In this document: piece by piece, positions 14,914 through 48,583 of the stretch | How the letters are laid out: each line of letters begins with the position of its first letter | Numbering within the stretch: the first letter of the stretch is position 1 | Source: Parcubacteria group bacterium 21-54-25 | GTDB taxonomy: Bacteria; Patescibacteriota; Minisyncoccia; Phycocordibacterales; Phycocordibacteraceae | NCBI GenBank assembly: GCA_002255585.1 | Contig: NCBJ01000003.1 | Span: forward strand, 21,571-85,570 | DNA: 64,000 nt | Direction of reading: 5' to 3' | Program-made: the position numbers and the translations under genes | Notes under the pieces: generated by a model | The model's database searches: none | What the model was told of the DNA's origin: nothing | Seen by the model: only the letters and a program-made list of their open reading frames with translations

Positions 14914-16507
14914 GGGATGGTGAGAGAGTATGGTATACCGATAGGGCACGTACGTGCATGGAGAGGTGGCTGAGCGGTCGAAGGCACCGCCTTGGAAAGG
15001 CGGCGTACGGGAAACTGTACCAAGGGTTCGAATCCCTTCCTCTCCGCAGAGTCGGACGGTCAGCACTTTTCGAGAAGCATAGGAAGGGCTTCTTGGCCTC
15101 AATGCTGAGGATCCTGCCCTTTAGAGTGGGGTTCGAACCGACCGTGCTTATGATTCGCCTCTTCAGCGCGTCATCGCCCTCGGTGTACCATTTCGCGGCC
15201 CTACTGCTAAACGAGATCAGAGCCTTGGCGGGTTCGAACCATTTGCCGTCGGAGTTCGATAGCGCTTCCTGAAGACGGGCTTGTTCTTGCTGGAGCGCGG
15301 CGCGTTGTGCCGTAAATTCCTCGTCCCCGATCAAATCTCGAATCCTCAGCGTCGTCAAATTTACGAGTGCTCTCCCCGCTTCATCAGCTGCATGCTGATG
15401 TGACGCCTTTTGCTGCGCAGACACCTCTTGCTCGGCTCTGCGTGCCTTCGCCACTTGCTCGATTCCCCAGATGTGTAGGGGATCCGGTATGCGTAGCGTG
15501 GCGAGAAACTCGCGAAAGGCTTGGTCGAGCTGGGCGGCCGACAAGGAGCGCTGCCGGCAGCGGTAATCGAGTCGACGCCTACTGCAGTGGTAGTACGTAT
15601 AATGCCGGCCGTGGCGGTTGACTTTGTGTTCTGCAGTGACCATGAAGCCGCATTCACCGCAGCGTATAAGGCCGGTAAAGGGAAAGGAGTGGCGGATCGA
15701 TTGCGGTTTCCCCGGCTTGGCGAGAAGTGCCCGCACGCGATCGTGCTCGTCGAGCGTAATCATTCGGGCGTGAGCGCCAGGGTAGATTTGTCCGCCCCAG
15801 ACGAGCACGCCCGCGTAGAACGAGTTGTGCAGGATTCGATGGATACCGCCAATGGTGAGATATTTCCCACCAATACGCTTATGCTGCCGGGTTCGCAGTC
15901 CCCACGCACGGGAATGCTCCATGAGGTCACGGAGTGAATAGGTCCCGGTGAGCGCTAGGTCGAAGAGCTTCCTCACCAAAGCGAATCGGTCAGGATCTTT
16001 GACGATTGTGCGTGACGCGGGGTCATTGAGATAGCCGATCGGCGCGCCGTTGGGGCGCCATCCACGGGCTACCTTTGCGCGATTTCCGCGCTTTACATTT
16101 TCGCTCAGGTTGTCCACGTAGTACTTCGAGTACCCGAAGATGATCGAGAGCATGAACTTCCCCTGGGAGTTGTTTTCGAAGCTGAACGTGGAGAACTTGA
16201 GGTCTTTAAGCGAGCGGCGGTCGAGGAGGTAGATGATCTTCCCGCCATCCACCGAATTGCGTGCCAGGCGATCTGGGTGCCACGTGATGATCCCGTCGGC
16301 TTCCCCGCGCTCAATCCGCTCGAGCATCACGTTGAATATCGGCCGCCCCGGGGCCTTCGCGCTATACGACTCCCGTAGGACTTCAACGACCTCCACTTCC
16401 GGGCGACCCTCAAACGCCCGTTTCAACTCCGCCTCTTGCGAGTCAATGGAAAGTACTTGGCGGTCTTCCGCTTCGCTGGATTTTCGGCAATACACAAAAT
16501 ATTTCAT
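14852..16507 (-). CDS. Large serine recombinase (resolvase/invertase-type catalytic domain plus recombinase, zinc-ribbon and coiled-coil domains). The true 3' end is uncertain because the ORF reads across tRNA-Ser on the opposite strand.
   Basis: N-terminal [19 protein letters not shown]...[13 protein letters not shown] catalytic-Ser domain. Cys cluster (CGECGF...YYHC). C-terminal tail contains GRDSNPW, which is the translation of the tRNA T-arm. Confidence 0.8.
14960..15046 (+). tRNA. tRNA-Ser (anticodon GGA), type II with a long variable arm. No CCA is encoded.
   Basis: Acceptor GGAGAGG/CCTCTCC, D arm GCTGAGCGGTCGAAGGC, anticodon stem CCGCC/GGCGG with loop TTGGAAA, variable stem GTAC/GTAC, T arm AAGGG-TTCGAAT-CCCTT. 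Confidence 0.8.
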
Positions 16508-16936
16508 AGGGTTGTGAGTAACGACGATTAAACAGTACCACGCTTCTGGCGACCGCCCGAGCCACGGGGTCGGGAGGGCGCGGCGACATGTACCCAGGCC
16601 AATCAAGGGAGGCGATCACCCCCCCGGGGGGGCGAGTGAGCGTGCAGAGCCTTTCCAGGGCGCATTTGTTGACGCAATTTGTAGCGGAGCCCGCACGGCA
16701 GTAGCGGGGCGGACGGTATAGCGCCGAAATCCAGATCCGTGCGATAGAGCGTACGGACCGTAACCCAAAGGAGCTAGGGAGGGACACGAGCCGCCCGGGT
16801 GCAATTCGCCCGTATCGGTTTGCCCGACGAGAGCGTATCCCCCGGCGGCCGGAAAACGCCGCGGGGCGGGAATACGGATGCCCTCGGCAGTGTACGGCGC
16901 CTTTCTCACGTTCGCTTCTCCAGGTACCGTGGCGGC

Positions 16937-18268
16937 ATGTCTGAAGGACAACAACCGGCGAACCATATCAACCCGCCAAGCGACAACAAAGAGCGTGTCG
17001 GCAGCGCCCGCCCGAGGGCGACGGCCGCCGCGATCGCAGACGGGAAGGTCCTTGTTGAACTGGTATACGACGCAGAGCGGGAGCGTACGGGGTTCGCGCG
17101 CTTTGAGGAGGGCCACTGGCGCCTCGTATCCGAGTACACGTCGAGCAAAGGGCGGCGCCTCGTGCCGTACGCGGCCCAGAACAACCTCATCAGCAATCGT
17201 GTCGTCCTGCTGCCGTCGGCACCGGAGGAGTACGGCACGCACGGACAACTTTTAGGCGAGATCGAAGCTTTCATCCACCGCTATGTGGATGTCAGCCCGA
17301 CGTTTGAGAAGATCGCGAGCCACTACGTGCTTCTCTCCTGGCTCTATGACGGCTTTAATGAGCTGCCGTACCTGCGCCTCCGAGGCGACTACGGAAGCGG
17401 CAAGACCCGTTTCCTCCTTACCGTCGGCGCCCTTTGCTATAAGCCCATCTTTGCGAGCGGGGCGTCGACCATATCGCCCATCTTCCACATCCTCGACGCC
17501 TTTCAAGGCACGCTCGTGATCGACGAGGCGGACTTTCGCTTCAGCGACGAGAAAGCGGACATGGTGAAGATTTTGAATAACGGCAATGTGCGGGGGATCC
17601 CCATCCTCCGCAATGAGCTTTCGCCGACCAAAGAGTACAACCCCCGGGCCTTCCAGGTCTTCGGCCCTAAAATCGTCGCCACCCGTGGCTACTACCAAGA
17701 CCGCGCCCTCGAAAGCCGGTTCATCACCGAGGAGATGGGCACGACGGCCCTGCGCGACGAGATCCCGATCAACCTGCCGACGGCATACCAAACGGAAGCC
17801 CTGGCGCTCAGGAACAAGCTTCTCCTGTATCGTTTCCACCGCTATGGGCGGGCGTACGCGGCACAGCCGGATCTCGATCGCACGATCGAGCCGCGACTTC
17901 GCCAAATTCTCGCCCCGCTTATGAGCGTGGGCGATGAGTCCCTCAAGGAGGATCTGCGCCTCCTCGCCCGTCAATATCACCGCGACATGCTCGCCGAGCG
18001 CGGCATGGACACGGAAGCGCGCGTCCTTGAGGCGATCCGGGAGCTCGCAACGGAATCGTCTGCCGAGCCGCTCACCGTTAAGGCCGTCACGGAGCGATTC
18101 ACGGCACGCTTCGGCGGCGAGGCCGACCGCCCTCCAACGAACAAATGGATTGGTGGGGTCATCCGCAGACGCCTCAACCTGCACACCCAAAAGAGCCACG
18201 GAAACTTCATCATCCCGCGGCACGAACAGGAAAAGCTCGCCCGCCTCTACGAGCGCTACGGCCTCTAG
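16937..18268 (+). CDS. P-loop NTPase (Walker A GDYGSGKT, Walker B VIDEADF), probably a replication/primase-associated ATPase of the integrated element
   Basis: Walker motifs seen directly. It is divergently transcribed from the recombinase. The family assignment is an inference. Confidence 0.5.
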   Translation: MSEGQQPANHINPPSDNKERVGSARPRATAAAIADGKVLVELVYDAERERTGFARFEEGHWRLVSEYTSSKGRRLVPYAAQNNLISNRVVLLPSAPEEYGTHGQLLGEIEAFIHRYVDVSPTFEKIASHYVLLSWLYDGFNELPYLRLRGDYGSGKTRFLLTVGALCYKPIFASGASTISPIFHILDAFQGTLVIDEADFRFSDEKADMVKILNNGNVRGIPILRNELSPTKEYNPRAFQVFGPKIVATRGYYQDRALESRFITEEMGTTALRDEIPINLPTAYQTEALALRNKLLLYRFHRYGRAYAAQPDLDRTIEPRLRQILAPLMSVGDESLKEDLRLLARQYHRDMLAERGMDTEARVLEAIRELATESSAEPLTVKAVTERFTARFGGEADRPPTNKWIGGVIRRRLNLHTQKSHGNFIIPRHEQEKLARLYERYGL

Positions 18269-18629
18269 CGGGTGGACATGGGGGATGTGGGGACATATAG
18301 CGACGTGGATACGAGTCGCCGTGCCGGGCCAAAAGCAAAGGAAACGCCTAGTGGGTATCCGCTAGCGCACCCGAGGGAACGTCCCCAACATCCCCAACGC
18401 CCCCATTGTCTACCCGACCCGGAGTCCGCCGCCCCCTTCCCGCACCGTCGGCATACATTGACAAATCGGCAACTCCATGTTGTTCTTATACCCCACTTGC
18501 CGATGTGCCTTGCCGATTCGCGCGACCTGCCGTGGGCGGCAAGTTTCCCTTTCTTTCCCCGAGCGTCTCGGCGCCTATGCTTGTCCTTGCGACACGACCC
18601 GACGTGGCCGTGTCGATCCCGACTTGCTT

Positions 18630-19004
18630 ATGTATCGACGAACGCACAACTACATTCGCGCATACCGCAAGCGCGCGGGCTTAAGCCAAGACGAGCTGGC
18701 GCTTTTGCTCGGATGCCGTAGCGGCACCAAGGTGTCTCGCTACGAACGGCACGCCCGTACGCCAACACTTGAAACCGCACTTGCGTGCCAGGCGATATTC
18801 GGCGTTCCGGTGCATGAGCTCTTTCCGGGCATGTATAGGGAGGTCGAACAAGTAACACACGCACGGGCACAGACGCTTGCGCGACAGCTTCGCTCCACGC
18901 CCGGCACGCCGCTGCCGGAGCGTAAGGCGCAGCTACTCGACATGATGGGTGCGCCGCGCGACGTCATCGCCCACCCAAGGAACTATGAAGCATACACGAG
19001 ATGA
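18630..19004 (+). CDS. XRE-family helix-turn-helix transcriptional regulator
   Basis: RAYRKRAGLSQDELALLLGCRSGTKVSRYERHARTP matches the Cro/C1 HTH pattern. The start is moved to the ATG at 18630. Confidence 0.6.
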   Translation: MYRRTHNYIRAYRKRAGLSQDELALLLGCRSGTKVSRYERHARTPTLETALACQAIFGVPVHELFPGMYREVEQVTHARAQTLARQLRSTPGTPLPERKAQLLDMMGAPRDVIAHPRNYEAYTR

Positions 19005-19506
19005 TGCCCTCGTCCTTGGCATCCACCCCGCTTCACGAGGCATCGGGTATACGGTCTTTGAGGGACCGCTCCGCCTCGTCGACTGGGGCGTCAAGGAGAC
19101 GCGGGAAAACAAAAACCGCGCGGGTATACAGAAAATCGGGGAACTCCTCGCGCTCTACCATCCTTCGGTACTTGTCATAGAAGCGTATCGGGGCGAGGGC
19201 TCGCGGCGCGCGAAGCGCATCCAGGCGCTTCTGGATAGCGTTACGGCATTGGCGAGAGCACGCAGGGTGCCGCTCCGGCGCTATTCCCGCGGCCACGTGC
19301 GCGCGTTCTTTTCGAACTACGACGCGACAACCAAGTACCAGATTGCGACGGCGATCGCGGCGTGGCTCCCCGAGCTCGAACCGCGCCTGCCGCCCGTCCG
19401 TAAGCCATGGATGAGCGAAGACTACCGCATGGCGATCTTCGACGCGGCGTCTTTGTCGCTCACGCACTTCCACCACAGCCGTGGCGAGGAGCGGGGCGCG
19501 GCGTAG
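18985..19506 (+). CDS. RuvC/YqgF-like (RNase H fold) resolvase-like protein. The first catalytic Asp is replaced (LGIHPASR instead of LGIDPGSR).
   Basis: N-terminus LVLGIHPASRGIGYTVFEG is colinear with the RuvC ILGIDPGSRVTGYGV motif. VIEAY (Glu) and FDAASLSLTHF (Asp) occur at the expected positions. Confidence 0.45.
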   Translation: MKHTRDDALVLGIHPASRGIGYTVFEGPLRLVDWGVKETRENKNRAGIQKIGELLALYHPSVLVIEAYRGEGSRRAKRIQALLDSVTALARARRVPLRRYSRGHVRAFFSNYDATTKYQIATAIAAWLPELEPRLPPVRKPWMSEDYRMAIFDAASLSLTHFHHSRGEERGAA

Positions 19507-19624
19507 AGGGCACCCGATTGTTCTTTGTCGGGCGGGCACGCGCGCGTGCCCGCCCGAGCCAACGTCTCCCTGCTACTGAGGAGCACCGAATCCCCGGTGT
19601 TCCTGGCGTGGCAAGGAGATACCC

Positions 19625-20536
19625 ATGGATACCGACCGTTCTTTCAAGAAGTCCGACCTCTATGCCCGGGTGACCGACCACATCATCCAGGCGATCGAAG
19701 CGGGAGCCACGGACTATGTCATGCCCTGGCATGAGCAGTCCGGGGCGGGCCTCCCCCGAAACGCCTCGACCGGAAACCTCTACCACGGGGTCAACACCGT
19801 ATCGCTCTGGACAAGTGCGTCGCGCCACGGATACGGCGTGCCGTACTGGGCGACGCTCCGACAGTGGGGTGCGCTCGGGGCCCGCGTCCTGCGCGGCGAG
19901 AAAGCCTCGCTCGTGGTCTTCTACAAGCGGGAGGAGGCGCCGGCCGACACAGAAACGAGCGAGAGCGTGGGGAAGAGGCGGGGCGTTCTCCGGGCCTCCT
20001 TCGTCTTCAATGCCCTCCAGGTTGACGGTTGGTCGCCGCCGGTACCCGAGAAGACCGATCGCACCGAGCGGCTCCAGGCGGCAGACGACCTCATCGAGGC
20101 GCTCGGGGCCGAGATCCTCTACGGGAGCACCCGCGCCTGCTACAGCCCGACCCTCGACCGCATCTTTATGCCCGGGCGTCCCCAGTTCATTGATGGAAGC
20201 ACGAGCACCGCGACCGAAGGATTCTATTCGGTCTTGCTCCATGAGCACATTCATTGGTCGGGGTACCGCACGCGGCTCAATCGAGACCTCACGGGGCGCT
20301 TCGGCGATAGCGCCTACGCCATGGAGGAGCTCGTCGCAGAACTGGGCGCGGCGTTCCTCTGCGCCGAGCTTGGCATCGAAGATCACCCGCGGCACGACCA
20401 CGCCGCGTACGTGGCAAGCTGGCTGGAGGTCCTTCGCCGGCAGAAGTCGGCAATCTTCACGGCGGCCAGTACCGCAACGGCGGCTTGCCGCTACCTCTCG
20501 GAGGTGGCAAGCCGGGTGGCCCAATCGTCCCTGTGA
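19625..20536 (+). CDS. ardC: ArdC-like antirestriction protein (N-terminal ssDNA-binding DUF1738 domain plus C-terminal zinc metalloprotease)
   Basis: ArdC_N-like N-terminus (DLYARVTDHIIQAIEAG...MPW). C-terminal LLHEHIHWSGY HExxH motif. Confidence 0.75.
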   Translation: MDTDRSFKKSDLYARVTDHIIQAIEAGATDYVMPWHEQSGAGLPRNASTGNLYHGVNTVSLWTSASRHGYGVPYWATLRQWGALGARVLRGEKASLVVFYKREEAPADTETSESVGKRRGVLRASFVFNALQVDGWSPPVPEKTDRTERLQAADDLIEALGAEILYGSTRACYSPTLDRIFMPGRPQFIDGSTSTATEGFYSVLLHEHIHWSGYRTRLNRDLTGRFGDSAYAMEELVAELGAAFLCAELGIEDHPRHDHAAYVASWLEVLRRQKSAIFTAASTATAACRYLSEVASRVAQSSL

Positions 20537-20949
20537 CCCTCCTCACCGCTGTCCTTTCCGTAGCCCGGCCGCGTGGCCGGGCTTTTTCTATCCATTCGCT
20601 TGAAGCGCCGCCGCAGCGGCAGGGTGCCGGCGTGGCAACTTTCCCCGTCTTTTTGGCGGCCTTCGTATCCGTATGCTACGGGCACGCCGCAGCCGTAGGG
20701 TGAGCGGCGTACAGATCCCACACGTTCCCACGCTCGTCCTCGTTTGGACGGGTAGCCCCCGGGAAGCCGGGGGGAAGTCGCCTGCCGTGTTGTACCACGG
20801 GGGAAAGCGTATCCATCGCATGGGCGCCACCGTTTCAACCTTCACACGGTTCCCCCCCCCTCCAGAGTGCATTGACCCCCGCTCGGGGGTCGCCCGAAGC
20901 CCGGTTCGGCGAAGCGGGCTTCCAAACGGCAACCGAGCGGAGGTGTGCA

Positions 20950-21453
20950 ATGAGCGATAAACAAGATGTACTGAGGGTCGTCGAGATGAACGGGCCGTAT
21001 GTAGCCGTCCGCGACCTTTCCCCCGACGACGTGATCGAAGCCGCCAAGAAGATCCTCAGGGCGCGTTTCCAGCGCGGGAAGAAACTTGATTGTTCCGCCG
21101 ACGCCAAGGATTATGTGATCCTCACCCTCGGCGACCGGGATCACGAGGCGTTTGCCTGCCTGTTTCTTGACACGCGCCATCGGGTGATTCGCTGCGACCT
21201 TATGGCCACCGGCTCGCTTGCGGAGGCGCGGGTGTACCCGCGGGAGGTCGTGAAGCGGGCACTACTCTACAACGCAGCCGCGGTGATTTTCGCCCACAAC
21301 CATCCCTCGGGCGTCGCCGAGCCGAGCAAGGGCGACAAGGCGCTCACGGACCGGCTCGCAAGCGCTTTGCAGCTCATCGACGTACAGGTACTCGACCACC
21401 TTGTCGTGGGCGGTGACGAGACCGTGAGCTTTGCCGATCGCGGGATGTTATGA
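20950..21453 (+). CDS. radC: RadC-like JAB/MPN domain protein
   Basis: HNHPSGVAEPSKGDKALT JAMM motif with an upstream E and S. The start is moved to the ATG at 20950. Confidence 0.85.
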   Translation: MSDKQDVLRVVEMNGPYVAVRDLSPDDVIEAAKKILRARFQRGKKLDCSADAKDYVILTLGDRDHEAFACLFLDTRHRVIRCDLMATGSLAEARVYPREVVKRALLYNAAAVIFAHNHPSGVAEPSKGDKALTDRLASALQLIDVQVLDHLVVGGDETVSFADRGML

Positions 21454-21461
21454 GGTCTTCG

Positions 21462-21488
21462 GTCGCTCCTTCGGGGGCGACTTTTTTA
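21462..21488 (+). terminator. Rho-independent terminator after radC copy A
   Basis: GTCGCTCC-ttcg-GGGGGCGAC followed by TTTTTTAT. Confidence 0.6.
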
Positions 21489-21624
21489 TGCAAAGCGGCC
21501 GTGACGCGTCTGGTGCCATCCCGCCTTCGAGGGTGTATAATCCCCACATTTCCCGTGTTAGGGCACCCACGACCAGTCGGGGCCAACACACGAGCGCGTT
21601 TCTGCGCGCTACGGTAGGCGTACC

Positions 21625-23104: not shown

Positions 23105-23340
23105 TGTAATGGCGCCTCCCGTGTCTTGGACGTGCTGCGGAGTACCGTCGACCCGTCCATCGGTTTGTTTGCGTGGGGTCATGGCTTTTTCCTCCTTGTT
23201 GAACTGACCGGCAGAACACCACGAGAACCGTGCCGTGCTGCCGGCAGTTCGCAAGAAGAACCACCCCGCGATCTTTCCGCGTCAAAGAGCTACCCAAGAA
23301 CCAGTATATCAGGTAAAAAATTTCAGGAACGCAACCGGAC

Positions 23341-39487: not shown

Positions 39488-39714
39488 ATGATAAGTGGTA
39501 AGTATCAGAGTGCTCGGCCCGCTGGTTGCACTCTACTAAAATCAATTCCTACACTCTAGGCGGTAGCGGTTCTACGGGAACGTAAAGACGCGCAAGGAAG
39601 ACGGCGCTATGCGTGTCAAGTGGCAATCTAGGAAAGCCTTTCCATTTGAGACGCTGTAATATTCTCAGCCACCCAATGCTGGGTCGCAGTAGCACCCAGA
39701 GTCCAGGCCCCCAA

Positions 39715-40374: not shown

Positions 40375-40398
40375 TGTTTAAATACTAACACGCAATTG

Positions 40399-41418: not shown

Positions 41419-42630
41419 TTATTGTCCCAAAGTGCCGCCAGCCTCAAGCTCCCCGGGATGAAGCGTCCGGGCGCTAAAGGGCCGCGAGGGTGTCCCGTCG
41501 ATCATAAGGCGCAGGTATATATGGTGGTTGGGGAGGTTCACGAGATCCTCCGTGGAGAACGTCGGCGCGAACTCCCGGGCAAGGAATGGCGCGTCGTGGG
41601 GCCCCACCCGAAAGGAGATCACCGTGCCCACGTTCCCCAAGACTGCGTGACGGATCTCCGGCGCAAGCTGGTCGAGGTACTGGTGCACAAGCACCATGCC
41701 GACCCCGTACTTCCTGAGTTCCGAGGCCATGGTGACCAGGGCGAGCGTGGTGAAGTGCTGGAACTCGTCGAGATAGAGGAAGAAAGGGCGGCGCTCGCGC
41801 TCCGGCACCTCCGCCCGGCTAAAGGCCGCAAGCCCGATCGTGGTCACGAGGAGACCCCCAAGGAGGTGCGCTGCGTCCTCGCCAAGCCTTCCTTTTGAGA
41901 GGTTCACAAGGAGGACGACGCCGCCCTCGTCCATGAGCCGCCGGACCCCGATCGGTTTCTCGGGAGCGCAGAGAATCCGACGAAGGGTCGGATCGGCGAG
42001 AAACGCCCCCACCTTGTTCTGGATCGGGGCGATCGCCTCGGAGCGCATCCGGGGCGTATATCGCTCGTATTCGCGAAGCAGGAACTCGGCCACCTGCGGG
42101 TTCGTCGTGGTCCGCCCCACCCGACGCCGGAATTCGCGTTCGTCAAGCAGCCGGGGCAGGTCGAGGAGTGTTGCGTCCGGATAGTCCAGGAGCGCGAGGA
42201 GCGCGTTGCGGAGGATGTGCTCCATCCTGGGGCCCCAGGCGTCTTCCCACATCTTCTTGAACACCTCAAGCATCCCGGCGGCCGCAAGCGGCCGCTTCTC
42301 GGGCGCCACCTGTTTGAGAGGATTGTATCCATAGGGCTGATGCGGATCCGGAGCGTCCATGTATATGCACGTCTCCCGGCGGGCCGGGGGAACCTGAGCC
42401 GCAAGTCGCTCGACGAGATCGCCGTGGGGGTCAAGGAGAGCGAGTCCACGGCCCGCAGCGAGATCCTGGCGGATGAGCGTCTCTAGGAGCGTGCTCTTTC
42501 CGGTTCCGGTTTGACCGATCGCGTACAGGTGCAGCAACCGATCACGCTCTTTGATGCCAAAGCGGGTACGCTGGTTGCGGAAGTCGGTTTTGGCGAGGTA
42601 CGTAACCTGATGTCTTTCAGTGCGGGGCAT
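41419..42630 (-). CDS. T4SS coupling-protein-like/HerA-FtsK-like P-loop ATPase (TraD/TraG_D_C-type), shorter paralog of the family seen at 35156..37216
   Basis: Walker A YAIGQTGTGKSTLL, Walker B FFLYLDEFQHF, LVHQYLDQL motif. It lies in an isolated GC-rich 1.2-kb patch. Confidence 0.55.
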   Translation of the reverse strand: MPRTERHQVTYLAKTDFRNQRTRFGIKERDRLLHLYAIGQTGTGKSTLLETLIRQDLAAGRGLALLDPHGDLVERLAAQVPPARRETCIYMDAPDPHQPYGYNPLKQVAPEKRPLAAAGMLEVFKKMWEDAWGPRMEHILRNALLALLDYPDATLLDLPRLLDEREFRRRVGRTTTNPQVAEFLLREYERYTPRMRSEAIAPIQNKVGAFLADPTLRRILCAPEKPIGVRRLMDEGGVVLLVNLSKGRLGEDAAHLLGGLLVTTIGLAAFSRAEVPERERRPFFLYLDEFQHFTTLALVTMASELRKYGVGMVLVHQYLDQLAPEIRHAVLGNVGTVISFRVGPHDAPFLAREFAPTFSTEDLVNLPNHHIYLRLMIDGTPSRPFSARTLHPGELEAGGTLGQ

Positions 42631-43007
42631 CGTTACTCAATGGTGTATGAGCCGCGTTCACGTGGGTAGAGGGGGAATGCTGCCTTGTACAAGTACCGAA
42701 CGACCACATGGTAAACATCGACAGGTCACGGTATCACCATGCGCCGCGTCTCGCTGCCGGCCGGCGCGCGTTCGCTTAACTTACTGGCAGTCCCAGTAGT
42801 AGGGAAATCTCAGCTGAATACAGGCTCCTCTGATGCCCCGGCTTTGACAAGACCGCCCCATGAGCGTATATACTCGCGGGCAATGCCATTCTTGGACAAC
42901 GGGTCGACTGACGACCCGCGGTGGCGGCCAGACCAAAGAATAATGTGCCTCGCCCTGCGCACGAACGCGCAGCTAGATGGTAAGAGGGCATAGAGGGCAA
43001 ATGTCGG

Positions 43008-43379
43008 ATGGACAGCCACTCATCAGATCATGCCGCTGGCGAGCGCGCTGATCTAGAGACCACGAGAACCGTCCTCAGATATCAACTCGCTGCCCTTATT
43101 GCGAAGCTCCTCGGAGTGGCATTATGGATATTTTTTGCGGTGGTTTGGCCGTTAAAGATAACCGCGGGTAAGACCACTATCGTTAATGTCCTTTTCCATA
43201 TGATCGCGAACGTACACGCATCGGTAGCGATCTCGTGGGCAACGACAGCGGGGTTCGGATATCTCTGGGTTCGTGAACGACGTATTCGTAAGAAGAGTGT
43301 AAGGCGTGAACACGTCCGCATAGTGGAATTAGAGCAACTTCTAGATCCGAATCGATCCTCAAGTGGAATCGACGAATGA
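43008..43379 (+). CDS. Hypothetical membrane protein
   Basis: 123 aa with 3 hydrophobic helices. Confidence 0.35.
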   Translation: MDSHSSDHAAGERADLETTRTVLRYQLAALIAKLLGVALWIFFAVVWPLKITAGKTTIVNVLFHMIANVHASVAISWATTAGFGYLWVRERRIRKKSVRREHVRIVELEQLLDPNRSSSGIDE

Positions 43380-43529
43380 GTTCGACGGTACTGTGGATAA
43401 CGCGCTTGCCAAGAACGCACGCATCTGCTTCCCTGGTATTGGAAGCATCGATGTCCCAATTCGAAAATTTGGACATCCGCGGTCAGCCTCAGCCTTGCCA
43501 CCATGTACAGAATATAGGAGCGCACGACG

Positions 43530-44141
43530 ATGAGCGTGTCTGATCATGTGCTCATTGTGGAGGTATGCGTTAGCGTTGCGTTGCTGTGGTTTGCGTATTC
43601 CTTCATGTTCCAGAAAACCCGCACCGACGCATTCCAAGAAGATTTATTTACCATCCGCGATGAGCTCTTCGATTATATGTCGAGGTACAATGTACCATTC
43701 GACCTTCCCGCGTACCGTGCGATGCGTGACCTGCTTAACGGAGCTATCCGCGTTGCGCATTTCCTCAGCCTTTTCTCGATCGTGTACGCAGGCGTTGTGC
43801 GGTCTAGGAGTGCCGTATCTCCAAACACCGTCCAACTCGCAATAGGCAACATTGACGATACCGATGTGAGGGAACACTACCAGTACGTATATCTGAAGGT
43901 TCAGAAGCGCTTTTTGCAGTACTTCTTTCTGGAAGGGCTGCGTAGTCTCATCTTTACGCCTCTGTATCGCTATATGAAGCGACTAGGAATGAGGCCGCGC
44001 GTGCGCGCATTCGTTAGTGGTATGCGAAACGAACTCCTGGAGGAATTCGTCCAGTTCGGCAAAAAGGATTCGCTGGGGGCGCATATCTTACTGGCCGTGA
44101 CACGTGGCCAACGTCATCGTAAATCGTCAAAGGCAGCCTAA
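43530..44141 (+). CDS. Hypothetical protein with an N-terminal TM helix
   Basis: 203 aa with no recognised motif. A terminator-like GCCAACC-agggatg-GGTTGGC lies downstream. Confidence 0.4.
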   Translation: MSVSDHVLIVEVCVSVALLWFAYSFMFQKTRTDAFQEDLFTIRDELFDYMSRYNVPFDLPAYRAMRDLLNGAIRVAHFLSLFSIVYAGVVRSRSAVSPNTVQLAIGNIDDTDVREHYQYVYLKVQKRFLQYFFLEGLRSLIFTPLYRYMKRLGMRPRVRAFVSGMRNELLEEFVQFGKKDSLGAHILLAVTRGQRHRKSSKAA

Positions 44142-44362
44142 TGAGCCAACCAGGGATGGTTGGCTTCTCTATACTATCGGCTATATTTTGTCGCCTATTC
44201 GAATCCGGTGGCTACACGGGCCTGATTTGGTGCAGAAAGTGACATAGCACATCTATATACACTTCTGGTGTTTCCCTTTCTGCTCGACTGTGCTTATAAT
44301 ACTATAAGTTAATTGTTCTTTATAACATACTGATTCAACGGTGGTTATGTAGGAGATCAGAA

Positions 44363-44869
44363 ATGATTAACGCTGCTCTGCTCGAAACGGTCAGTGACGA
44401 GAGCGATGCGCGGCCTCCGGTATTTTGGGCTCTAGACCCGCGCCTACCACGGATCGCAGCCCAAGCAGCAGTTGAATTTGACTGGCTTGTGCAACAGAAG
44501 ACCGGTAACAATCTTCCGCATGTCTCTCGCGAAGCAATCAATGCACTTCACTTGCTATTGAGCGAGTCTACGGGGACCGCTCAGCCGGGTGGTCCAGACA
44601 ACAAGGGGTTCGTCGATACGCTAGGGCTAAATCTATTTGCCAAAGCGTATAACGCGTCGCACACGGGCCATCCTGTACGCACCCGAGACGAGTTGGATAC
44701 CGCAATGCGGCAGCTCGTAGACTCACTTTATCGGGCTGGGGAGAATAACGAGCTTGCCGAGAACATCTTGGCCGATATGCGGGATTTTTGTGCGAAACTT
44801 TCTGACTATGGTTCCGCCTATCGCAAGATGATTTACGGTAGCCGACAAGAACATCCTTACAGGAAGTAG
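44363..44869 (+). CDS. Hypothetical protein
   Basis: 168 aa, low-GC, immediately upstream of the HExxH/Dcd-like pair. Confidence 0.4.
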   Translation: MINAALLETVSDESDARPPVFWALDPRLPRIAAQAAVEFDWLVQQKTGNNLPHVSREAINALHLLLSESTGTAQPGGPDNKGFVDTLGLNLFAKAYNASHTGHPVRTRDELDTAMRQLVDSLYRAGENNELAENILADMRDFCAKLSDYGSAYRKMIYGSRQEHPYRK

Positions 44870-44949
44870 TGCTCGGCGCGCACATAACACACAATCAGCA
44901 GCCAATGTTTACGACTGAAGAACTGGATTAGAAGGTCCAGTTCTTTTTT

Positions 44950-46233
44950 ATGTTGGACTGGAGTTCGGAGCAGGAGGGCCGGCTGATGACGCCAGTCGAC
45001 TGTGCGAAGCAGAAGGTCAGTGCTGTAATTGATACCATCAATTCTGTACGCGAGCTCGATTTTCCGTACGAGCCTCCGCGCGAAGCGGTAGATTTTATTC
45101 GTAACATTTTCAGCGACCATCTCCAGCACCTAGACGGTATTTCAGCGGGGGGAACAGCCGCTCGCACCATGTGCAGGCAGGTTTCCGAAGATATTGATAA
45201 TTTCCTACTTGCTGTCGGCTTCATGGTGCGCGCCTGTGACAACCATGGCGCACTTGAGTTGCAAAGGCCACTGATGAGGCTGACACATCGAGCGATCGCC
45301 CCCCAGATAAAACTCATCATCTCTTCAGACTGGCGTTTTTCACCCTTCACTCTCTTATATCCCGGAGAATTCGGGGATAAGTTTGTCCTGGTTGGTCTTC
45401 CGATTTCCGAGGCGAGTAATCCACTCATAGCTCCCCTTGCCGGACACGAGCTAGGGCACAACATTTGGCGACGTCTGCCAGCATTCAATGTTCATATAAG
45501 CGAACAAGTAAAAAGCAAAGTGACCGAAACGATCAAGTCAGGCTTATGGGAGGAGTTTTCGAAGGCGTTCAACTTGAAGAACAAGGAAGACATAGATCAG
45601 GACGATCTCTTTGGAGCTATTTCTCCGTGGCAGCTAGCGAAAGTTTGGGCGCTATCACATTGCGAAGAGATGTTCTGCGATTTTATCGCGCTTACGATAT
45701 TTGGAGAAGGCTATCTGCATGCCTTCCAATACTTAATATCACCCGGCGGCGGCTTCCGAAATCCCACCTATCCCAGCATGCGAGATCGTATCGCTGCGTT
45801 AGTCGTGGCGTGTCAGGGGATCGGACTTACCGTTTCGAGAGGGTTTAGCGAGGAGTTTGATGAGTCGGACGTAAGCTCCGACCATCGGCAGCAGCTTCTC
45901 CTGCAAGTAAGTGACGATGTGTCACGAAGCCTGACAACCGACCTCGCCGAAGCAGCCAAGACTTGGTGCGAACAGCGGGGCGTAATCAATCGAAATCCCA
46001 ACGATGTCAATCGTATTGTATCGCTATTCAAGCGCGTCATTCCGGCCACCGGTGCTGAGAGTTTGGCAGATATAATCAATGCAGCTTGGTGCATTTATCT
46101 AGATCCCGTGAATCCGTGGGAGCACGACTACCCAATTACGAATAAACCGGAACGGCGAGCGTCGCTTACTCGCGAGCTTGCCCTGAAAAGCTTCGAGGTG
46201 TTTGAGATCGAAAGAACGCAGGAGGATACGTAA
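44950..46233 (+). CDS. HExxH zincin-like metallopeptidase-domain protein (AGHELGHNIW plus downstream Glu)
   Basis: A single HELGH motif at ~residue 165 with acidic residues ~50 aa later (HCEEMFCDF). Its stop overlaps the start of the Dcd-like gene (ATGA at 46231-46234). Confidence 0.45.
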   Translation: MLDWSSEQEGRLMTPVDCAKQKVSAVIDTINSVRELDFPYEPPREAVDFIRNIFSDHLQHLDGISAGGTAARTMCRQVSEDIDNFLLAVGFMVRACDNHGALELQRPLMRLTHRAIAPQIKLIISSDWRFSPFTLLYPGEFGDKFVLVGLPISEASNPLIAPLAGHELGHNIWRRLPAFNVHISEQVKSKVTETIKSGLWEEFSKAFNLKNKEDIDQDDLFGAISPWQLAKVWALSHCEEMFCDFIALTIFGEGYLHAFQYLISPGGGFRNPTYPSMRDRIAALVVACQGIGLTVSRGFSEEFDESDVSSDHRQQLLLQVSDDVSRSLTTDLAEAAKTWCEQRGVINRNPNDVNRIVSLFKRVIPATGAESLADIINAAWCIYLDPVNPWEHDYPITNKPERRASLTRELALKSFEVFEIERTQEDT

Positions 46234-46907
46234 TGCCTCTATCCGCAAACGAGATTGCGAGACATCTAGATGGCGCCCCTGACCTGGCTGTCGAGGAACA
46301 ATTTGTGTTGGCGCCACGGCCGAGTACCACTAACATACGCGAAAAAGGGGCGGCGTCCGTAGATCTGAGGTTAGGCACATGGTTTGTTACGACTAAAGCC
46401 AGCCGTCACTCTCTACTCGATATTTACGCAGACGAAGCGCAACAGCCTCCTGAGCACAACCTAACGGATAGGCACTACATACCGCTTGGGAGTTACTTTA
46501 TTTTGCATCCACATTCATTTGTTCTAGCGGGAACGTTGGAGTGGATAAAGATGCCCAAAGGTTTGTGTGGGTACATTACGGGAAAGTCATCATGGGGCAG
46601 AAGAGGCCTTATCATCGAGACAGCACCCGGTATCCATCCTGGCTTCGCGGGCTGCCTCACGCTCGAGCTTGCGAATGTCGGAGAAATACCGATAAAGCTT
46701 GTTACTGGTACTGCTGTGTGCCAGCTGTTCTTGCACGAGATGGTCGGCCAAGTAAATAATGTAGATCCAAGTAGTTTCCTCGGACAAAGGCAGCCGACGC
46801 TCGGCAGGGTAACACCAGATGAGTTCGTATTGAGGCTGATGCGTGCATCAACATCGGCGACCAGTCACAACACAAAAACTGCCGATACATCAGGCTCACA
46901 ATCTTGA
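46233..46907 (+). CDS. dCTP deaminase/dUTPase-fold (Dcd-like) protein
   Basis: SVDLRLG...FILHPHSFVLAGTLEWIKMP...GKSSWGRRGLIIETAPGIHPGFAGCLTLELANVGEIPIKLVTGTAVCQLFLHEM is colinear with E. coli Dcd motifs. Confidence 0.75.
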   Translation: MPLSANEIARHLDGAPDLAVEEQFVLAPRPSTTNIREKGAASVDLRLGTWFVTTKASRHSLLDIYADEAQQPPEHNLTDRHYIPLGSYFILHPHSFVLAGTLEWIKMPKGLCGYITGKSSWGRRGLIIETAPGIHPGFAGCLTLELANVGEIPIKLVTGTAVCQLFLHEMVGQVNNVDPSSFLGQRQPTLGRVTPDEFVLRLMRASTSATSHNTKTADTSGSQS

Positions 46908-47063: not shown

Positions 47064-47843
47064 CTACGGCCTTCGAAGTACCTTCGCTGCTGACGAGCCC
47101 ACCTTGCGCGGGAGCAGATCAGAGAGCGCCGCTTTTGCAAAATCGAGAGTGATCGGCGCGCCGACAAAGTGCGCGTTCGCCGCCAGCCGCCGAAGGGCGC
47201 CGTCGAGTTCGCCGCCACCAGAACGCAAGTGCTTGGCCATGTAGCGGGCCACGTCGCCCGGCAACTCCACCCGTGCCGCCTGCGCCTTGCTACGGAGGAT
47301 GGCCACGCGGGTTTCAAGCTCGGGCGCCGCAAGGGCGACCGTGAGCCCCCAATTGAAGCGCGAGCGGAGGCGCGCCTCCAGCCCATCGAGCTCTTTAGGA
47401 AACCGGTCGCAGGTAACGACGACCTGCTGGTCGTTTTCAAGCAGCCACATGAAGGTGTGAAAAAACTCCTCCTGGGGCTGCTCCCTGCCGGCGAAGCACT
47501 GAATGTCATCGATCAGGAGGGCATCGGCTGAACGGTAGGAGGGGGTCTTGTCACGAAGGGTGTTGTGCTGCAGCGCGTCGTCTACCTCTGCCACAAAGCG
47601 CTCCGCGTGCCGATAGAGCACGCTGGCACCCGGGCGCTCCTGCAGCATCCCATTACCTATCGCATGGAGGAGGTGGGTCTTGCCACAGCCGGCACCCCCG
47701 TAGATAAAGAGCGGGTTGTGCGCATGCCCGGGGCACTTCGCTACCTGATGGGCAGCGGCGTACGCACGCTCACTCGATTTTCCAGTAACAAAGCGCTCGA
47801 ACGTGAGGTCGGGGTTGACGTCGCCACCTGGGGTAAATTCCAC
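47064..47843 (-). CDS. DnaA domain-III-only AAA+ protein. It lacks DnaA domains I/II and the C-terminal DNA-binding domain IV.
   Basis: LTFERFVTGKSSERAYAAAHQVAKCPGHAHNPLFIYGGAGCGKTHLLHAIGN and ALLIDDIQCFAGREQPQEEFFHTFMWLLENDQQVVVTCDRFPKEL...LRSRFNWGLTVALAAPELETRVAIL are colinear with DnaA domain III. GC-rich patch. Confidence 0.75.
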   Translation of the reverse strand: MEFTPGGDVNPDLTFERFVTGKSSERAYAAAHQVAKCPGHAHNPLFIYGGAGCGKTHLLHAIGNGMLQERPGASVLYRHAERFVAEVDDALQHNTLRDKTPSYRSADALLIDDIQCFAGREQPQEEFFHTFMWLLENDQQVVVTCDRFPKELDGLEARLRSRFNWGLTVALAAPELETRVAILRSKAQAARVELPGDVARYMAKHLRSGGGELDGALRRLAANAHFVGAPITLDFAKAALSDLLPRKVGSSAAKVLRRP

Positions 47844-48583
47844 GGAGAAATCCCTCGCTCACTTTGTCGGCTGATGCAACGGGTGCTCAGGGAGGACAAA
47901 CAGTCTACGGCGTACGCTCTCCCCGCGCCACGTCCACATACGTAGCGAGAGGATTCCTCATCCCGACCGCGGAGGCAGCGCGGTAGCGACTTCCCGCGGG
48001 GCCGCCTCGGATATCGCCGTCGTTCCGGGCTCGCGCTTCATAATCGCTGCTGCGGGGCTCTAATTTGGCGCCGCGCGAGCGCGATCCGGCCGTGAGCGGC
48101 AGAAAAGCATCGCTCACCCCCAGACAGTGTCCGTTTTCTTTACACCGGATCTTCGCCTGAAATCTCTATATTGCGCAGGCGGTTGCCTGCGCCACCTTCT
48201 TGGCCTGCCCGCTTCACTACTACCCGCCCTATCGCTGGTGGAACTACTATGGGCGGATTACTTCCCGATGCGGTATCTCTCCCACAACTACCGGTTATTC
48301 CGATTGTTTGTGAGATTCTTCGAGCCATAGGCGTCCCCGATCATGTCACGTTTTTTTACATTTTAAATTCGTTCTAGCCAGATCGTAGCCACCACCGCGC
48401 TTCAACTTATTGTTTTAACGCCAGGCGCTACGCATTGGCCCGCATATTGCTGCGGGATTGGGCCATTGATTGAGAGGATGCACGAGCCCCGATTGGACGT
48501 AACACGGAACCGCACAGGCTCGATTCGGGTCGTCAGACCGACCCGAGTACCACAAGTGACGAAAGCGTGGCTCAGGAGGAGGC

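Follow-up and report, generated by a model that had tools for sequence, protein, structure and literature searches.

The window considered here, a stretch of 64,000 nucleotides, is chromosomal DNA of a Parcubacteria (CPR) bacterium with a tiny genome, which is represented by a MAG; its proteins are recorded under the name Parcubacteria group bacterium 21-54-25. It contains a tRNA-Ser(GGA) gene on the forward strand at 14960–15047 (ARAGORN; Rfam tRNA, 57 bits), which an earlier note on this DNA had placed at 14960–15046 and had correctly taken as the left edge of a foreign island. The tRNA is unusually divergent from the tRNA-Ser of relatives. The order htpX-(GGDEF)-tRNA-Ser is also found in these relatives and the gene order of the flank is syntenic with that of Paceibacteria/Kaiserbacteria-type MAGs. 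In none of the relatives compared does the region within 10 kb of tRNA-Ser contain a counterpart of a gene of the right flank, and downstream synteny is confined to a trailer of ~30 nt. The left junction is present in three public assemblies that are 100% identical to one another; these possibly derive from the same reads and hence do not count as independent evidence.

The GC content rises from ~0.52–0.55 before the tRNA to 0.58–0.67 directly 3′ of it, as had been noticed, and steps down from 0.63 to 0.54 at ~48.1 kb. The earlier note had read this step as the end of an island of ~33 kb, closing at 48.13 kb. The drop in GC is real but it is not the border, as the tetranucleotide composition remains foreign up to 54.0 kb (similarity to the host of 0.47–0.57 in the 3-kb tiles beyond 48.13 kb) and the right attachment site, attR, lies at 54162–54165. 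The island is therefore 39,118 bp long between attL and attR (15048–54165). A tetranucleotide comparison, which the note had recommended, shows every 3-kb tile from 15.0 to 54.0 kb to be foreign, with an r to the host of 0.40–0.69, and the tiles of both flanks to be host-like, with an r of ~0.80–0.88, the switch coinciding with attL and attR. Islets of low GC lie within the island at ~28.0–30.8 kb, 39.5–41.3 kb (0.47) and 42.7–46.9 kb (0.50–0.51); the latter two are as previously described, but the first is wider than the 28.0–28.7 kb that had been given.

The left edge of the island is occupied, as claimed, by a gene for a large serine recombinase (LSR), on the reverse strand at 14852–16507, whose integrated form encodes 551 aa with Resolvase, Recombinase and Zn_ribbon_recom domains (Pfam, translation and homologs). 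The part encoded by the element is 15048–16507. Homology to the family ends at ...ADRPTLR, after which the reading frame enters the antisense strand of tRNA-Ser(GGA) (RGRDSNPW), so that the last 62 codons run through the tRNA into host DNA. The 41 family-typical C-terminal codons missing from this gene are located at 54164–54042 on the reverse strand (tblastn with the tails of homologs, E = 6e-10), where, together with a stop codon, they form a detached 3′ end (RAGLNAVRTLYRKRDSEFLTTLEQVNEITAQMEDRDLLRAA; 54039–54164) that is also the P arm of attR. Rejoined, the two parts give a protein of 528 aa whose alignment with its closest homolog, P0002, is gapless for 521 aa and shows 74% identity. Neither the body nor the stranded tail contains stops or frameshifts, and they are 74% and ~65% identical, respectively, to the nearest homolog. 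Three homologs with 57–64% identity, located at tRNA-Ser(GCT), tRNA-Tyr(GTA) and tRNA-Gln(TTG), enter the antisense tRNA at the same codon as the LSR of the window, which corresponds to the exact 3′ end of the tRNA. About 110 of the 120 closest homologs retain an intact tail, some of them on Mb-scale contigs, which indicates that many members of the family are chromosomal without having used this attP.

The 3′ end of tRNA-Ser serves as the B arm of attB; the gene remains intact through its discriminator base and one C. The core of attL, CCGC at 15044–15047, was read from the sequence and the register of the junction and includes the crossover dinucleotide; the core of attR, also CCGC, occupies 54162–54165, and these four bases are all that the two sites share. 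The crossover lies in this 4-nt core, namely acceptor positions 71–72, the discriminator and the next C. Immediately to the right of the junction, at 54166–54192 (forward strand), is the B′ arm, the original host trailer of tRNA-Ser, which was recognised by motif search and from relatives: these 27 nt match the trailer directly 3′ of tRNA-Ser in L004, L007 and L009, and the window has a single occurrence of the pattern CCGAAGNNTTTAGTATCGG(N)CAGACCCG, against an expectation of 0. The reconstructed attP is GGCATTGAGGCCCGCCCGCAGAGTCGGACGG and the reconstructed attB is …TCCCTTCCTCTCCGCCCGAAGTATTTAGTATCGG…, with 23 of 24 nt of the B arm identical between locus L035 and the window. The split LSR gene, the trailer at the right junction and the foreign tetranucleotides of 15.0–54.0 kb together place attP inside the LSR gene, 41 codons before its stop. 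The earlier note had suggested checking whether the tRNA 3′ end is repeated where segments meet, and nowhere else in the window does the 3′ end of tRNA-Ser recur as a direct repeat. Such a search could not succeed because a serine recombinase leaves few shared bases, and the CCGC-only overlap and absence of a tRNA-Ser repeat both fit this type of enzyme. The tRNA is whole, and no long repeat was made, because strand exchange fell in the 4-nt core. A search of the metagenome collection yielded neither an empty attB nor the attP junction of a circular form, and the integration is thus reconstructed rather than observed.

To the right of the LSR lie further genes of a backbone that is found in thousands of related elements from other bacteria and recurs in L033, L034, L040, L041 and L044, the last of which carries an additional, unrelated LSR. 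This backbone comprises the LSR, a P-loop partner, an HTH protein, a ~175-aa protein, ArdC, RadC, a ~400-aa TrwB/HerA-like ATPase, a cassette of a small protein, a VirD4-like T4CP and Replic_Relax, and a RepA-like protein accompanied by a cluster of hexamers. The P-loop NTPase (16937–18268, forward strand), which is the conserved partner of the LSR and is transcribed divergently from it, matches no Pfam family but has Walker A (GDYGSGKT) and Walker B (LIIDEGD) motifs and a helical, probably winged-helix, C-terminus. It has more than 6000 homologs with 57–64% identity and adjoins the LSR in L033, L035–L037, L040, L041 and L044; its AF2 model (pLDDT 68) gave no significant fold match in the PDB. 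There follows a block on the forward strand (18477–21453; Pfam) of an HTH_31 regulator, a 173–185 aa protein, ArdC (ArdcN and MPTase-PolyVal) and RadC, whose order is kept in L034, L040, L041 and L044.

The mobilisation cassette (34658–38183, forward strand), defined by Pfam and by counterpart cassettes, consists of a small protein (34658–35155), a 686-aa VirD4-type coupling protein (T4CP; 35156–37216) and a Replic_Relax relaxase, whose ORF spans 37026–38183, although translation probably begins only near 37.2 kb. The same cassette is present in L044 (65% and 40% identity) and in a Sulfitobacter plasmid. Beyond it lies a gene for a RepA-like protein with HTH_36/DnaD_N/RP-C matches (38616–39176, forward strand; Pfam), directly preceded at 38457–38605 by an iteron-like cluster that holds six of the 29 GACTA[GT] hexamers of the window. 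The Replic_Relax and RepA-like proteins that had been reported are thus present, as are the iterons, although TRF finds no classical tandem array. Both T4CP-like ATPases also exist, the second being a TrwB/HerA-like protein of 403 aa on the reverse strand (41419–42630; Pfam), which shares only 26% identity with the 686-aa T4CP. It had been regarded as an isolated relic patch at 41.4–42.6 kb, but it aligns over 391 aa with 60% identity to a 388-aa gene of a related element (its counterparts in L033 and L044 show 59–60% over ~390 aa) and is a full-length backbone gene. Neither a recombination directionality factor nor an oriT or an origin was recognised in the element, and mating-pair (secretion system) genes are absent.

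Between the backbone blocks lies variable cargo, exchangeable islets of differing composition made up mostly of anti-phage defence genes. These genes are an XhoI restriction-modification pair, a SIR2 protein, an NsnA/GmrSD protein with a HEPN protein and two dCTP-deaminase-like genes, and most of the defence-like cargo does, as stated earlier, sit inside the island. The region 22208–25187 contains a lower-GC islet with a dCTP-deaminase-like gene on the reverse strand, followed by a second 180-aa protein and RadC, an HTH protein and an LRAT/NlpC-like protein (Pfam); the second copies are paralogs, 66% (180-aa protein) and 37% (RadC) identical to the first. On the forward strand are a type II restriction-modification system of an Eco57I/TaqI_C-type methyltransferase and an XhoI-family endonuclease (25445–27947; Pfam) and a SIR2-domain defence protein (28717–30486; Pfam SIR2_2, PADLOC SIR2 models). 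The islet of GC 0.47 encodes a 3′-5′ exonuclease (DNA_pol_A_exo1) and a 285-aa protein annotated without function (39715–41256, reverse strand), and the low-GC cargo at 42739–46907 (forward strand) comprises ORFs without assigned function and a dCTP-deaminase-like protein (46233–46907). A GC-rich gene at 47064–47843 (reverse strand; Pfam Bac_DnaA) encodes a DnaA protein with the AAA+ domain III only, an Hda-like architecture that covers positions 103–341 of the 437 of NCBIfam DnaA, and no remnants of domains I or IV lie near it. The distal part (48171–53942, mixed strands) combines host-like GC with foreign tetranucleotides, and its ORFs have no family matches save for a 479-aa secreted protein with a PEP-CTERM-like C-terminus (48872–50311).

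Two different recombination systems are indeed present, with the second, tyrosine-type module nested within the LSR element. This module (30918–33974, forward strand) encodes a tyrosine integrase (30918–31997; Pfam), a GmrSD_N/NsnA-like protein and a HEPN (RiboL-PSP) protein, and is defined by Pfam, by PADLOC (NsnA and PD-T4-2_A) and by integrase homologs. Adjacent to it, at 30860–30912 on the reverse strand, is the 3′ half of a tRNA-Arg(CCU), from the anticodon loop to CCA (Rfam partial tRNA, 20 bits), which occurs once in the window. In L046 a 53%-identical integrase stands beside a full tRNA-Arg(CCT) with the same geometry, and the half tRNA is an att relic of the nested module. Of the tyrosine integrase and xis previously assigned to 31–34 kb, the integrase stands but the xis is weak: the PrtN/AlpA-type HTH protein at 34034–34429 (reverse strand) matches Pfam PyocinActivator at E = 1.5e-4, below the curated cut-off, and is a possible excisionase or regulator. 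The description of a mosaic, tRNA-anchored mobile island with relics of related elements holds. A fragment of a second Replic_Relax gene (aa 211–247) was found by DNA and protein self-comparison at 39385–39495 on the forward strand, 39393–39486 being 90% identical in DNA to 37664–37757 (76% in protein), and a truncated second copy of the small protein lies at 41388–41275 on the reverse strand, 76% identical to aa 36–73 of the 34658–35155 product. A tRNA-like gene at 39184–39293 (forward strand; Rfam tRNA, 51 bits) has a 33-nt insert in its anticodon loop and is called as tRNA-Glu(TTC) by ARAGORN when introns are allowed.

The region 15048–54165 is most probably a single integrative, and probably mobilisable, element of 39.1 kb whose LSR used an attP within its own coding sequence. 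On this reading the LSR recombined this attP with an attB made up of the last bases of tRNA-Ser(GGA) and the trailer. Integration thereby split the LSR gene, the body at attL gaining 62 unrelated codons antisense to the tRNA and the natural tail of 41 codons being left 39 kb away at attR. Excision by attL x attR recombination is predicted to restore the full-length LSR of 528 aa, and the exchange of tails could work as an inherent switch that changes the activity or direction of the recombinase. The RepA-like and P-loop proteins may maintain the excised circle, which may be transferred by its own relaxase and coupling protein via the secretion system of a helper, which would be required because the element encodes none. 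The interior scars stem from recombination with sister elements, and the tyrosine-integrase module with its tRNA-Arg half-site was captured into the element.

The earlier note had instead envisaged several independent ICE/IME-like elements, inserted successively at tRNA-Ser and decayed into a 33-kb pile ending at ~48.1 kb. The two types of recombinase, the strong GC heterogeneity, the duplicated RadC and 180-aa protein, the relaxase and small-protein fragments and the tRNA-Arg half-site adjoining the tyrosine integrase are all in keeping with such a history. Moreover, the tRNA-Ser locus in this clade does look like an integration hotspot, as unrelated LSR lineages (~36% identity) are directed at the same tRNA in L004 and L015; the contigs of several relatives end at or just 3′ of it. 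The pile-up itself fares less well, since the sole attL/attR pair brackets 15048–54165, the internal borders have no tRNA-Ser-end repeats, the stretch of 48–54 kb is compositionally foreign and single related elements contain the supposedly separate parts together, in an unchanged order, giving a backbone of one family. Successive insertion is hence improbable, and as an account of the outer architecture it has largely been refuted, whilst the mosaicism and the relics are real. An origin as a prophage integrated by a serine integrase is very remote. Such integrases are common in temperate phages and distant LSR matches occur in phage records, but no plasmid or phage record exceeds 30% identity, no close LSR relative exists among 50,697 phage records, and Pfam, PHROGs and NCBIfam gave no match to a capsid, portal, terminase or tail family, the element having relaxase, coupling protein, ArdC and RepA-like genes instead.

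An assembly or binning chimera, in which a foreign GC-rich contig was joined to a CPR contig at the tRNA, is also hardly credible as the source of the island. The source is a MAG, the composition of the island is sharply unlike that of its flanks, backbone relatives occur in Proteobacteria-type genomes and the three identical assemblies may share reads; however, a chimera would not be expected to split one recombinase ORF precisely across both junctions or to place the tRNA trailer of relatives exactly at the far one, and the same geometry is seen at other tRNAs in unrelated samples. A weightier alternative, though still unlikely, accepts the same origin but holds that the island is now fixed and immobile, with the split having inactivated the LSR and internal decay ongoing. 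The integrated LSR lacks the conserved 41-aa tail, relics and a single orphan half-site lie inside, neither circular junction nor empty site was recovered, and archaeal split integrases need an intact copy to excise (PMC8371274). Against this, all three catalytic and DNA-binding domains of the LSR are uninterrupted upstream of the junction, the split state is found in at least three other lineages, and body and tail are free of stops with their identity retained, which suggests a recent or maintained state. A single element with its attP in the recombinase gene remains the preferred reading, and it belongs to a family that is widespread and apparently undescribed.

The LSR shares its resolvase-recombinase-zinc ribbon architecture with the enzymes of known LSR elements and phages (phiC31, Bxb1, A118, SCCmec Ccr, Tn4451 TnpX), which also have the recombinase gene at the element edge and few bases common to the junctions. 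The closest LSR system in target type is that of the Dehalococcoides ssrA islands with the CcrB-like DsiB, which are likewise located at the 3′ end of a gene for a small structured RNA, in that case tmRNA (PMC3146451). Unlike known LSR elements, the island of the window targets ordinary tRNA genes at their extreme 3′ end and has its attP within the recombinase ORF. Serine-family integrases were not known to target tRNA genes according to the Islander paper of 2014 (PMC4383910), serine-recombinase IMEs insert within genes and were known only in Firmicutes in a 2017 review (PMC5704250), and tRNA is unmentioned in a large LSR survey (PMC10083194).

Self-disrupting recombinases are described as exclusively archaeal in a review of ‘suicidal’ integrases, where the SSV1-type enzymes have attP inside an integrase gene that is partitioned by integration at a tRNA gene and would be rebuilt by excision, as is proposed here (PMC8371274). 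The SSV1-type enzymes are tyrosine recombinases that are divided into two inactive halves, whereas the window has a bacterial serine recombinase in which only the last 41 codons are exchanged; integration that splits its own gene was found described for archaeal tyrosine integrases only, and here it involves a bacterial serine integrase. In myxophage Mx8 (IntP/IntX) and in mycobacteriophage integration-dependent immunity, attP also lies in a coding sequence and integration alters the 3′ end and thereby the activity or stability of the protein, but these are tyrosine integrase systems and the mycobacteriophage gene affected is the repressor. The tyrosine-integrase islands of the Islander type are likewise anchored at a still-functional tRNA gene and carry variable cargo, and the nested module at 30.86–34.0 kb is a remnant of exactly such an island. 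The outer element differs in having neither a displaced tRNA fragment nor a direct repeat, tRNA-Ser owing its preservation to a crossover at its last bases and not to a replacement 3′ half supplied by the element. Finally, the Sulfitobacter mediterraneus plasmid NZ_CP081110 has all three genes of the cassette in identical order (T4CP identity 36–43%), but compared with cassette-bearing IMEs and plasmids the element of the window couples it to an LSR module and a second, 400-aa TrwB/HerA-like ATPase, does without mating-pair genes and resides in a CPR bacterium.

The feature is a single LSR-bounded element, mosaic in structure, probably mobilisable and defence-carrying, within a CPR genome. The earlier note had described a 33-kb island (14950-48130) at tRNA-Ser in which successive ICE/IME elements were stacked. 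Most of its observations on genes, relics and composition were confirmed, as was the picture of a mosaic, defence-carrying mobile island, but the right border was misplaced and one element bounded by its large serine recombinase (LSR) takes the place of a pile of insertions.

The left edge is marked by the only tRNA that ARAGORN calls in the window, tRNA-Ser(GGA) at 14960-15047, and by the LSR gene. The LSR contains a PF00239 resolvase catalytic domain with its catalytic serine (Pfam, E = 1.6e-19), followed C-terminally by a PF07508 Recombinase domain (E = 3e-8) and a PF13408 zinc ribbon (E = 4e-12), and translation and alignment indicate that its N-terminus is conserved among homologs. The reading frame starts at 16507 on the minus strand, passes the edge of the element and continues antisense through the tRNA down to 14852. 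At 14852-14913 this read-through tail overlaps the 3' end of the opposite-strand host GGDEF gene (14119-14913).

Most of the best 120 homologs, from more than 7,700 returned, are around 530 aa long, and about 110 of these 120 end in a conserved tail, …KKPFxxxSKNADRSTLRAGLNEVRTLYxxRDPEFLxTLxLVREI…AA, followed by the stop codon. The window LSR matches this tail until …ADRPTLR and then reads RGRDSNPW, which is the tRNA T-arm in reverse. The absent tail, RAGLNAVRTLYRKRDSEFLTTLEQVNEITAQMEDRDLLRAA with its stop codon, was located at 54164-54042 on the same strand as the LSR (tblastn with homolog tails, E = 6e-10). When the two parts are rejoined they encode a protein of 528 aa that aligns without gaps to the closest homolog over 521 residues across the junction, with 74% identity. 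Integration has thus split the gene, with attL at the end of a preserved tRNA and attR at the beginning of the displaced tail. The bases common to attL and attR are CCGC only, at 15044-15047 and 54162-54165, and comparison of repeats across the window gave nothing longer connecting the two ends. From these two sites attB can be reconstructed as …GGTTCGAATCCCTTCCTCTCCGC/CCGAAGTATTTAGTATCGGCAGACCCGG… and attP as …GGCATTGAGGCCCGCCCGC/AGAGTCGGACGGTCAGCAC…, the slash marking the junction; neither the empty site nor the circle junction had a match in the metagenome collection. The three assemblies that carry the left junction are identical and possibly not independent. Together, the LSR and the reconstructed attL and attR provide the element with its own integration and excision module.

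On the right, the 27 nt beyond 54165 (CCGAAGTATTTAGTATCGGCAGACCCG) match the sequence found directly 3' of tRNA-Ser in CPR relatives sharing the locus, where the trailer reads CCGAAGACTTTAGTATCGGACAGACCCG in L007 and is similar in L004 and L009. The window has a single occurrence of this motif where none is expected, and L007 has it directly 3' of the tRNA. Tetranucleotide similarity to the host is approximately 0.80-0.88 in the left-flank 3-kb tiles (up to and including the one that starts at 13.5 kb) and in all tiles from 54.0 kb, against 0.40-0.69 in every intervening tile, including those of 48-54 kb with their host-like GC. The trailer match and the tetranucleotide switch therefore define the element as 15048-54165, a length of 39,118 bp. 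GC content is 0.50-0.57 to the left of tRNA-Ser and then rises to 0.58-0.67 with several dips; the drop near 48.1 kb (0.63 to 0.54), which had been taken as the end of the island at 48.13 kb, is an internal step, and the border is found 6 kb beyond it, where GC is host-like. A GC step is consequently a poor border marker for genome scanning. The tetranucleotide signature is foreign from 15.0 to 54.0 kb and not uniform with the flanks.

The same geometry is found in homologous LSRs. Antisense-tRNA tails are present in around nine of the best 120 homologs, and three such cases were retrieved: an LSR of 64% identity that runs into tRNA-Ser(GCT) on contig L035, one of 61% identity that runs into tRNA-Tyr(GTA) on L036, and one of 57% identity, on L037 and L038, that runs into tRNA-Gln(TTG). 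In the window and in all four of these contigs the reading frame meets the tRNA 3' end at the identical codon, directly after …S-x-L. The B arms of L035 and the window are identical at 23/24 nt despite the different tRNA anticodon. Contig L033, which has an intact LSR, contains a second tail fragment starting exactly at RAGLN, 6.3 kb downstream, which again marks that codon as a recombination point. These second copies, at 17862-17984 in L033 and 8899-9021 in the related L034, both start at the crossover codon. In L033, NACHT and SLFN genes lie between the intact LSR and the tail copy and the HTH-ArdC block has the opposite orientation to that in other family members, an arrangement that suggests LSR-mediated rearrangement or cargo capture. 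Most members of the family keep an intact LSR, some of them on Mb-scale contigs. One related element, L044, resides on a 1.9-Mb contig with its family LSR intact and has, at 19989-21551, a second, unrelated LSR (25% identity) adjoining its 388-aa TrwB-like ATPase gene; this second enzyme may be the one that integrates that copy.

The flanks are bacterial (CPR), and the window proteins are named 'Parcubacteria group bacterium 21-54-25' in source records. The left flank, which encodes groES/EL, lemA, htpX, RNase J and a GGDEF protein, shares its gene order with MAGs that carry the labels Paceibacterota, Kaiserbacteria and 'Saccharibacteria' (HtpX identity at most 84%) and has no match in E. coli genomes. 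tRNA-Ser(GGA) lies 3' of htpX in 9/11 relatives scanned, and the island genes are absent after it except for distant LSRs: L004 and L015 have LSRs of about 36% identity and L024 a weaker match at a contig end. In L004 (11202-12542) and L015 (~12354-13775) this LSR lineage is situated about 100 nt downstream of the tRNA and points toward it, and the contigs of several other relatives (L005, L007, L008 and L010) end at or just past tRNA-Ser. With other LSR lineages and contig breaks both falling here, the locus seems to be used repeatedly for insertion in this CPR clade. An exact HtpX protein look-up for an empty site returned only contigs identical to the window; in a species-level scan of syntenic relatives the downstream genes did not match the right flank of the window, nor did tblastx of that flank against the relatives give a match. 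The right host flank (56014-62679) encodes an ArsR-type regulator, a 532-aa pyridine-nucleotide disulphide oxidoreductase and a short rpoB product (1059 aa).

Identity between the window tRNA-Ser and the tRNA-Ser(GGA) of the syntenic relatives (L004-L017) is only 67-75%, compared with 76-93% among the relatives themselves, and the window sequence would be consistent with a gene that may have been replaced. Its acceptor and T arms are similar to those of tRNA-Ser(GCT), the target of the related LSR in L035. Chromosomal GC is 0.64-0.67 in the closest HtpX relatives (L005, L007 and L009) compared with 0.53 in this host. The GC-rich blocks of the island reach tetranucleotide correlations of 0.84-0.89 with GC-rich sister Paceibacteria, yet 0.75-0.84 with unrelated elements, a signal too unspecific to assign the origin of the blocks; at most it hints that some segments of the element evolved in sister CPR lineages.

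The relatives with an intact tail (L033/L034, L040, L041 and L044) share the backbone of the window element, in which the LSR is divergent from a protein of 440-450 aa, followed by an HTH protein, a protein of ~175 aa, ArdC and often a methyltransferase. L044 in addition encodes a small protein and a 692-aa T4CP (65% and 40% identity), a gene weakly called Replic_Relax by Pfam that has no tblastn match to the window Replic_Relax, and a 388-aa TrwB-like ATPase with 60% identity over 391 aa to the window 403-aa gene, so both T4CP-like ATPases and the relaxase belong to the family backbone. The 403-aa TrwB/HerA-like gene is full length. The cassette of small protein, T4CP and Replic_Relax is also present on a Sulfitobacter plasmid, while plasmid and phage collections contain no LSR relative above 30% identity. 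The 443-aa partner that diverges from the LSR (16937-18268, plus strand) contains both Walker motifs (A and B), and its homologs, at 57-64% identity, number more than 6,000. It has no Pfam match, its best PDB profile match is an MCM helicase at E = 0.63, and Foldseek against the PDB gave nothing below E = 0.09, the best weak matches being Orc1/Cdc6, MCM and winged-helix proteins; the core of its AlphaFold model (pLDDT 68) is poorly modelled. As no family or fold match is significant, it is called only a P-loop NTPase.

A tRNA-anchored island may also be of the Islander type, formed by a tyrosine integrase, and the earlier note had proposed searching the segment borders for direct repeats of the tRNA 3' end. 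The window contains no repeat of the tRNA-Ser 3' end, with up to three mismatches allowed, and for lack of a displaced second copy the Islander-type reading was rejected; the repeat test was itself dropped, the outer recombinase being a serine enzyme. An ICE would agree with the mobilisation genes, namely Replic_Relax and two TrwB-type ATPases (Pfam), and was set aside since no self-encoded genes for type IV secretion or mating-pair formation were detected: VirB4 and other T4SS families gave no match in any scanned ORF (Pfam, PHROGs and NCBIfam), the largest unannotated ORF being 479 aa. A prophage was rejected on the same three collections, which returned no virion structural or packaging family, several ORFs at 48-54 kb being unannotated. 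With the cassette present and no virion or T4SS family, the element is therefore classed as IME-like, and its mobilisation is predicted from gene content.

The descriptive part of the earlier finding stands on the gene, relic and hexamer checks. Pfam recovered the LSR at the left edge, ArdC, two RadC proteins, a dCTP-deaminase-like gene, an Eco57I-type methyltransferase with XhoI endonuclease, SIR2, a tyrosine integrase, GmrSD_N, HEPN, a 686-aa T4CP, Replic_Relax, a RepA-like protein, a 3'-5' exonuclease, the TrwB/HerA-like ATPase, a second DCD and a DnaA-AAA+ protein, together with a weak match to a PrtN-type HTH. Both small relics were upheld, being pieces of a second relaxase and a second small protein on either side of an islet of GC 0.47. 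The claimed iterons hold up as six GACTA[GT] hexamers just upstream of the RepA-like gene (0.08 expected), but not as a tandem array (TRF). The XhoI R-M pair, SIR2, an NsnA/PD-T4-2_A-like protein with HEPN and two DCD-like genes make this a cluster of several recognised anti-phage systems, as in a defence island. The cargo between backbone blocks varies from element to element, with NACHT, SLFN, Prok-E2/ThiF and TIR/caspase genes in the relatives.

Internal mosaicism was likewise upheld, through duplicated RadC and 180-aa proteins (66% and 37% identity), the relics and a tRNA-Arg half-site. The latter, a tRNA-Arg(CCU) 3' half (30860-30912, minus strand), directly abuts the tyrosine integrase and has no partner in the window, where only chance 10-11-mers were found as att repeats around the integrase block. 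A 53%-identical integrase in L046 lies in the same orientation at the border of a prophage, beside a complete tRNA-Arg(CCT). On the strength of the half-site and this parallel, the integrase, NsnA-like and HEPN block looks like the captured remnant of a tRNA-Arg-specific element. Just outside the half-site, at 30731-30808, are four CATCACA/TGTGATG copies in both orientations, which may serve the nested integrase module as arm-type or operator sites.

Three further loci deserve mention. A tRNA-like gene (39184-39293, plus strand; Rfam tRNA 51 bits), with the RepA-like gene on one side and the relaxase fragment on the other, has a 33-nt insert in its anticodon loop and is called tRNA-Glu(TTC) by ARAGORN only with introns allowed; no counterpart was found in related elements. 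A GC-rich gene at 47064-47843 (minus strand) encodes a 259-aa protein consisting of DnaA domain III only (DnaA model 311 bits versus Hda 111); a broken dnaA was considered and rejected, as no remnants of domains I or IV are nearby, and the product is treated as a stand-alone AAA+ protein. At 48872-50311 (plus strand) lies the gene for a secreted Cys-rich protein of 479 aa with a PEP-CTERM-like C-terminus. It belongs to an unannotated family of ~1750 clusters whose members have differing anchors, one with an LPxTG-like end; in a CPR host such an exosortase-type signal would not be expected.

A working model can be proposed in which the LSR would bind two sites, attB in the tRNA 3' end and trailer and attP in its own codons 470-500, with strand exchange in the CCGC core. 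Integration would exchange the conserved tail for 62 unrelated residues and so might modulate the activity or direction of the LSR, whereas excision would restore the 528-aa enzyme. The circle could be maintained by the RepA-like protein with its hexamer cluster, plus the P-loop partner, and transfer would proceed by means of the relaxase and T4CP through the secretion system of a helper. More broadly, it is possible, if somewhat short of probable, that a very large undescribed bacterial LSR clade (>7,700 homologs) acts at extreme tRNA 3' ends with attP in its own reading frame, and drives a widespread family of mobilisable, defence-shuttling elements, including those in the reduced genomes of CPR bacteria. 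Subclades would then differ in the tRNA used and, because attP lies within the frame, integration would swap the C-terminal 41 residues of the LSR, to be regained upon excision; this tail swap would be a built-in, factor-independent switch of its activity or direction.

What is new here lies in the integration chemistry, that is, a tRNA 3' end as target combined with attP within a serine-integrase ORF. This would extend two textbook rules, that the insertion sites of serine integrases lie within protein genes rather than at tRNA genes, and that self-splitting integrases are an archaeal peculiarity. Control of integration versus excision by the tail is a directly testable mechanism, and short-site serine integrases acting at conserved tRNA 3' ends could serve as landing-pad tools, including in CPR bacteria without genetic systems. 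The ~39 kb of foreign defence and mobilisation DNA is also evidence that reduced Parcubacteria genomes exchange genes via cross-phylum elements.

Among known systems, the IntP/IntX integrase of phage Mx8 is a bacterial tyrosine integrase with attP in the 3' end of int. Serine-family integrases were not known to target tRNA genes when Islander was described in 2014 (PMC4383910), and a 2017 review of IMEs placed serine-recombinase IMEs in Firmicutes only, inserting within genes (PMC5704250). The main text of a 2022 LSR survey deals with target protein-gene clusters and contains no mention of tRNA (PMC10083194), and the TIGER/Islander resource note offers no breakdown of serine integrases by target. 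The ssrA islands of Dehalococcoides have a CcrB-like serine recombinase at the tmRNA gene (PMC3146451). No literature was found on serine integrases at tRNA 3' ends or on bacterial self-splitting serine integrases; their listing in island databases is possible. The window LSR resembles the SSV-type 'suicidal' integrases in having attP inside its own ORF, such that integration splits the gene, but those enzymes are archaeal tyrosine recombinases whereas the window enzyme is a bacterial (CPR) serine recombinase. The archaeal tyrosine integrases are the only described parallel found for the tail exchange.
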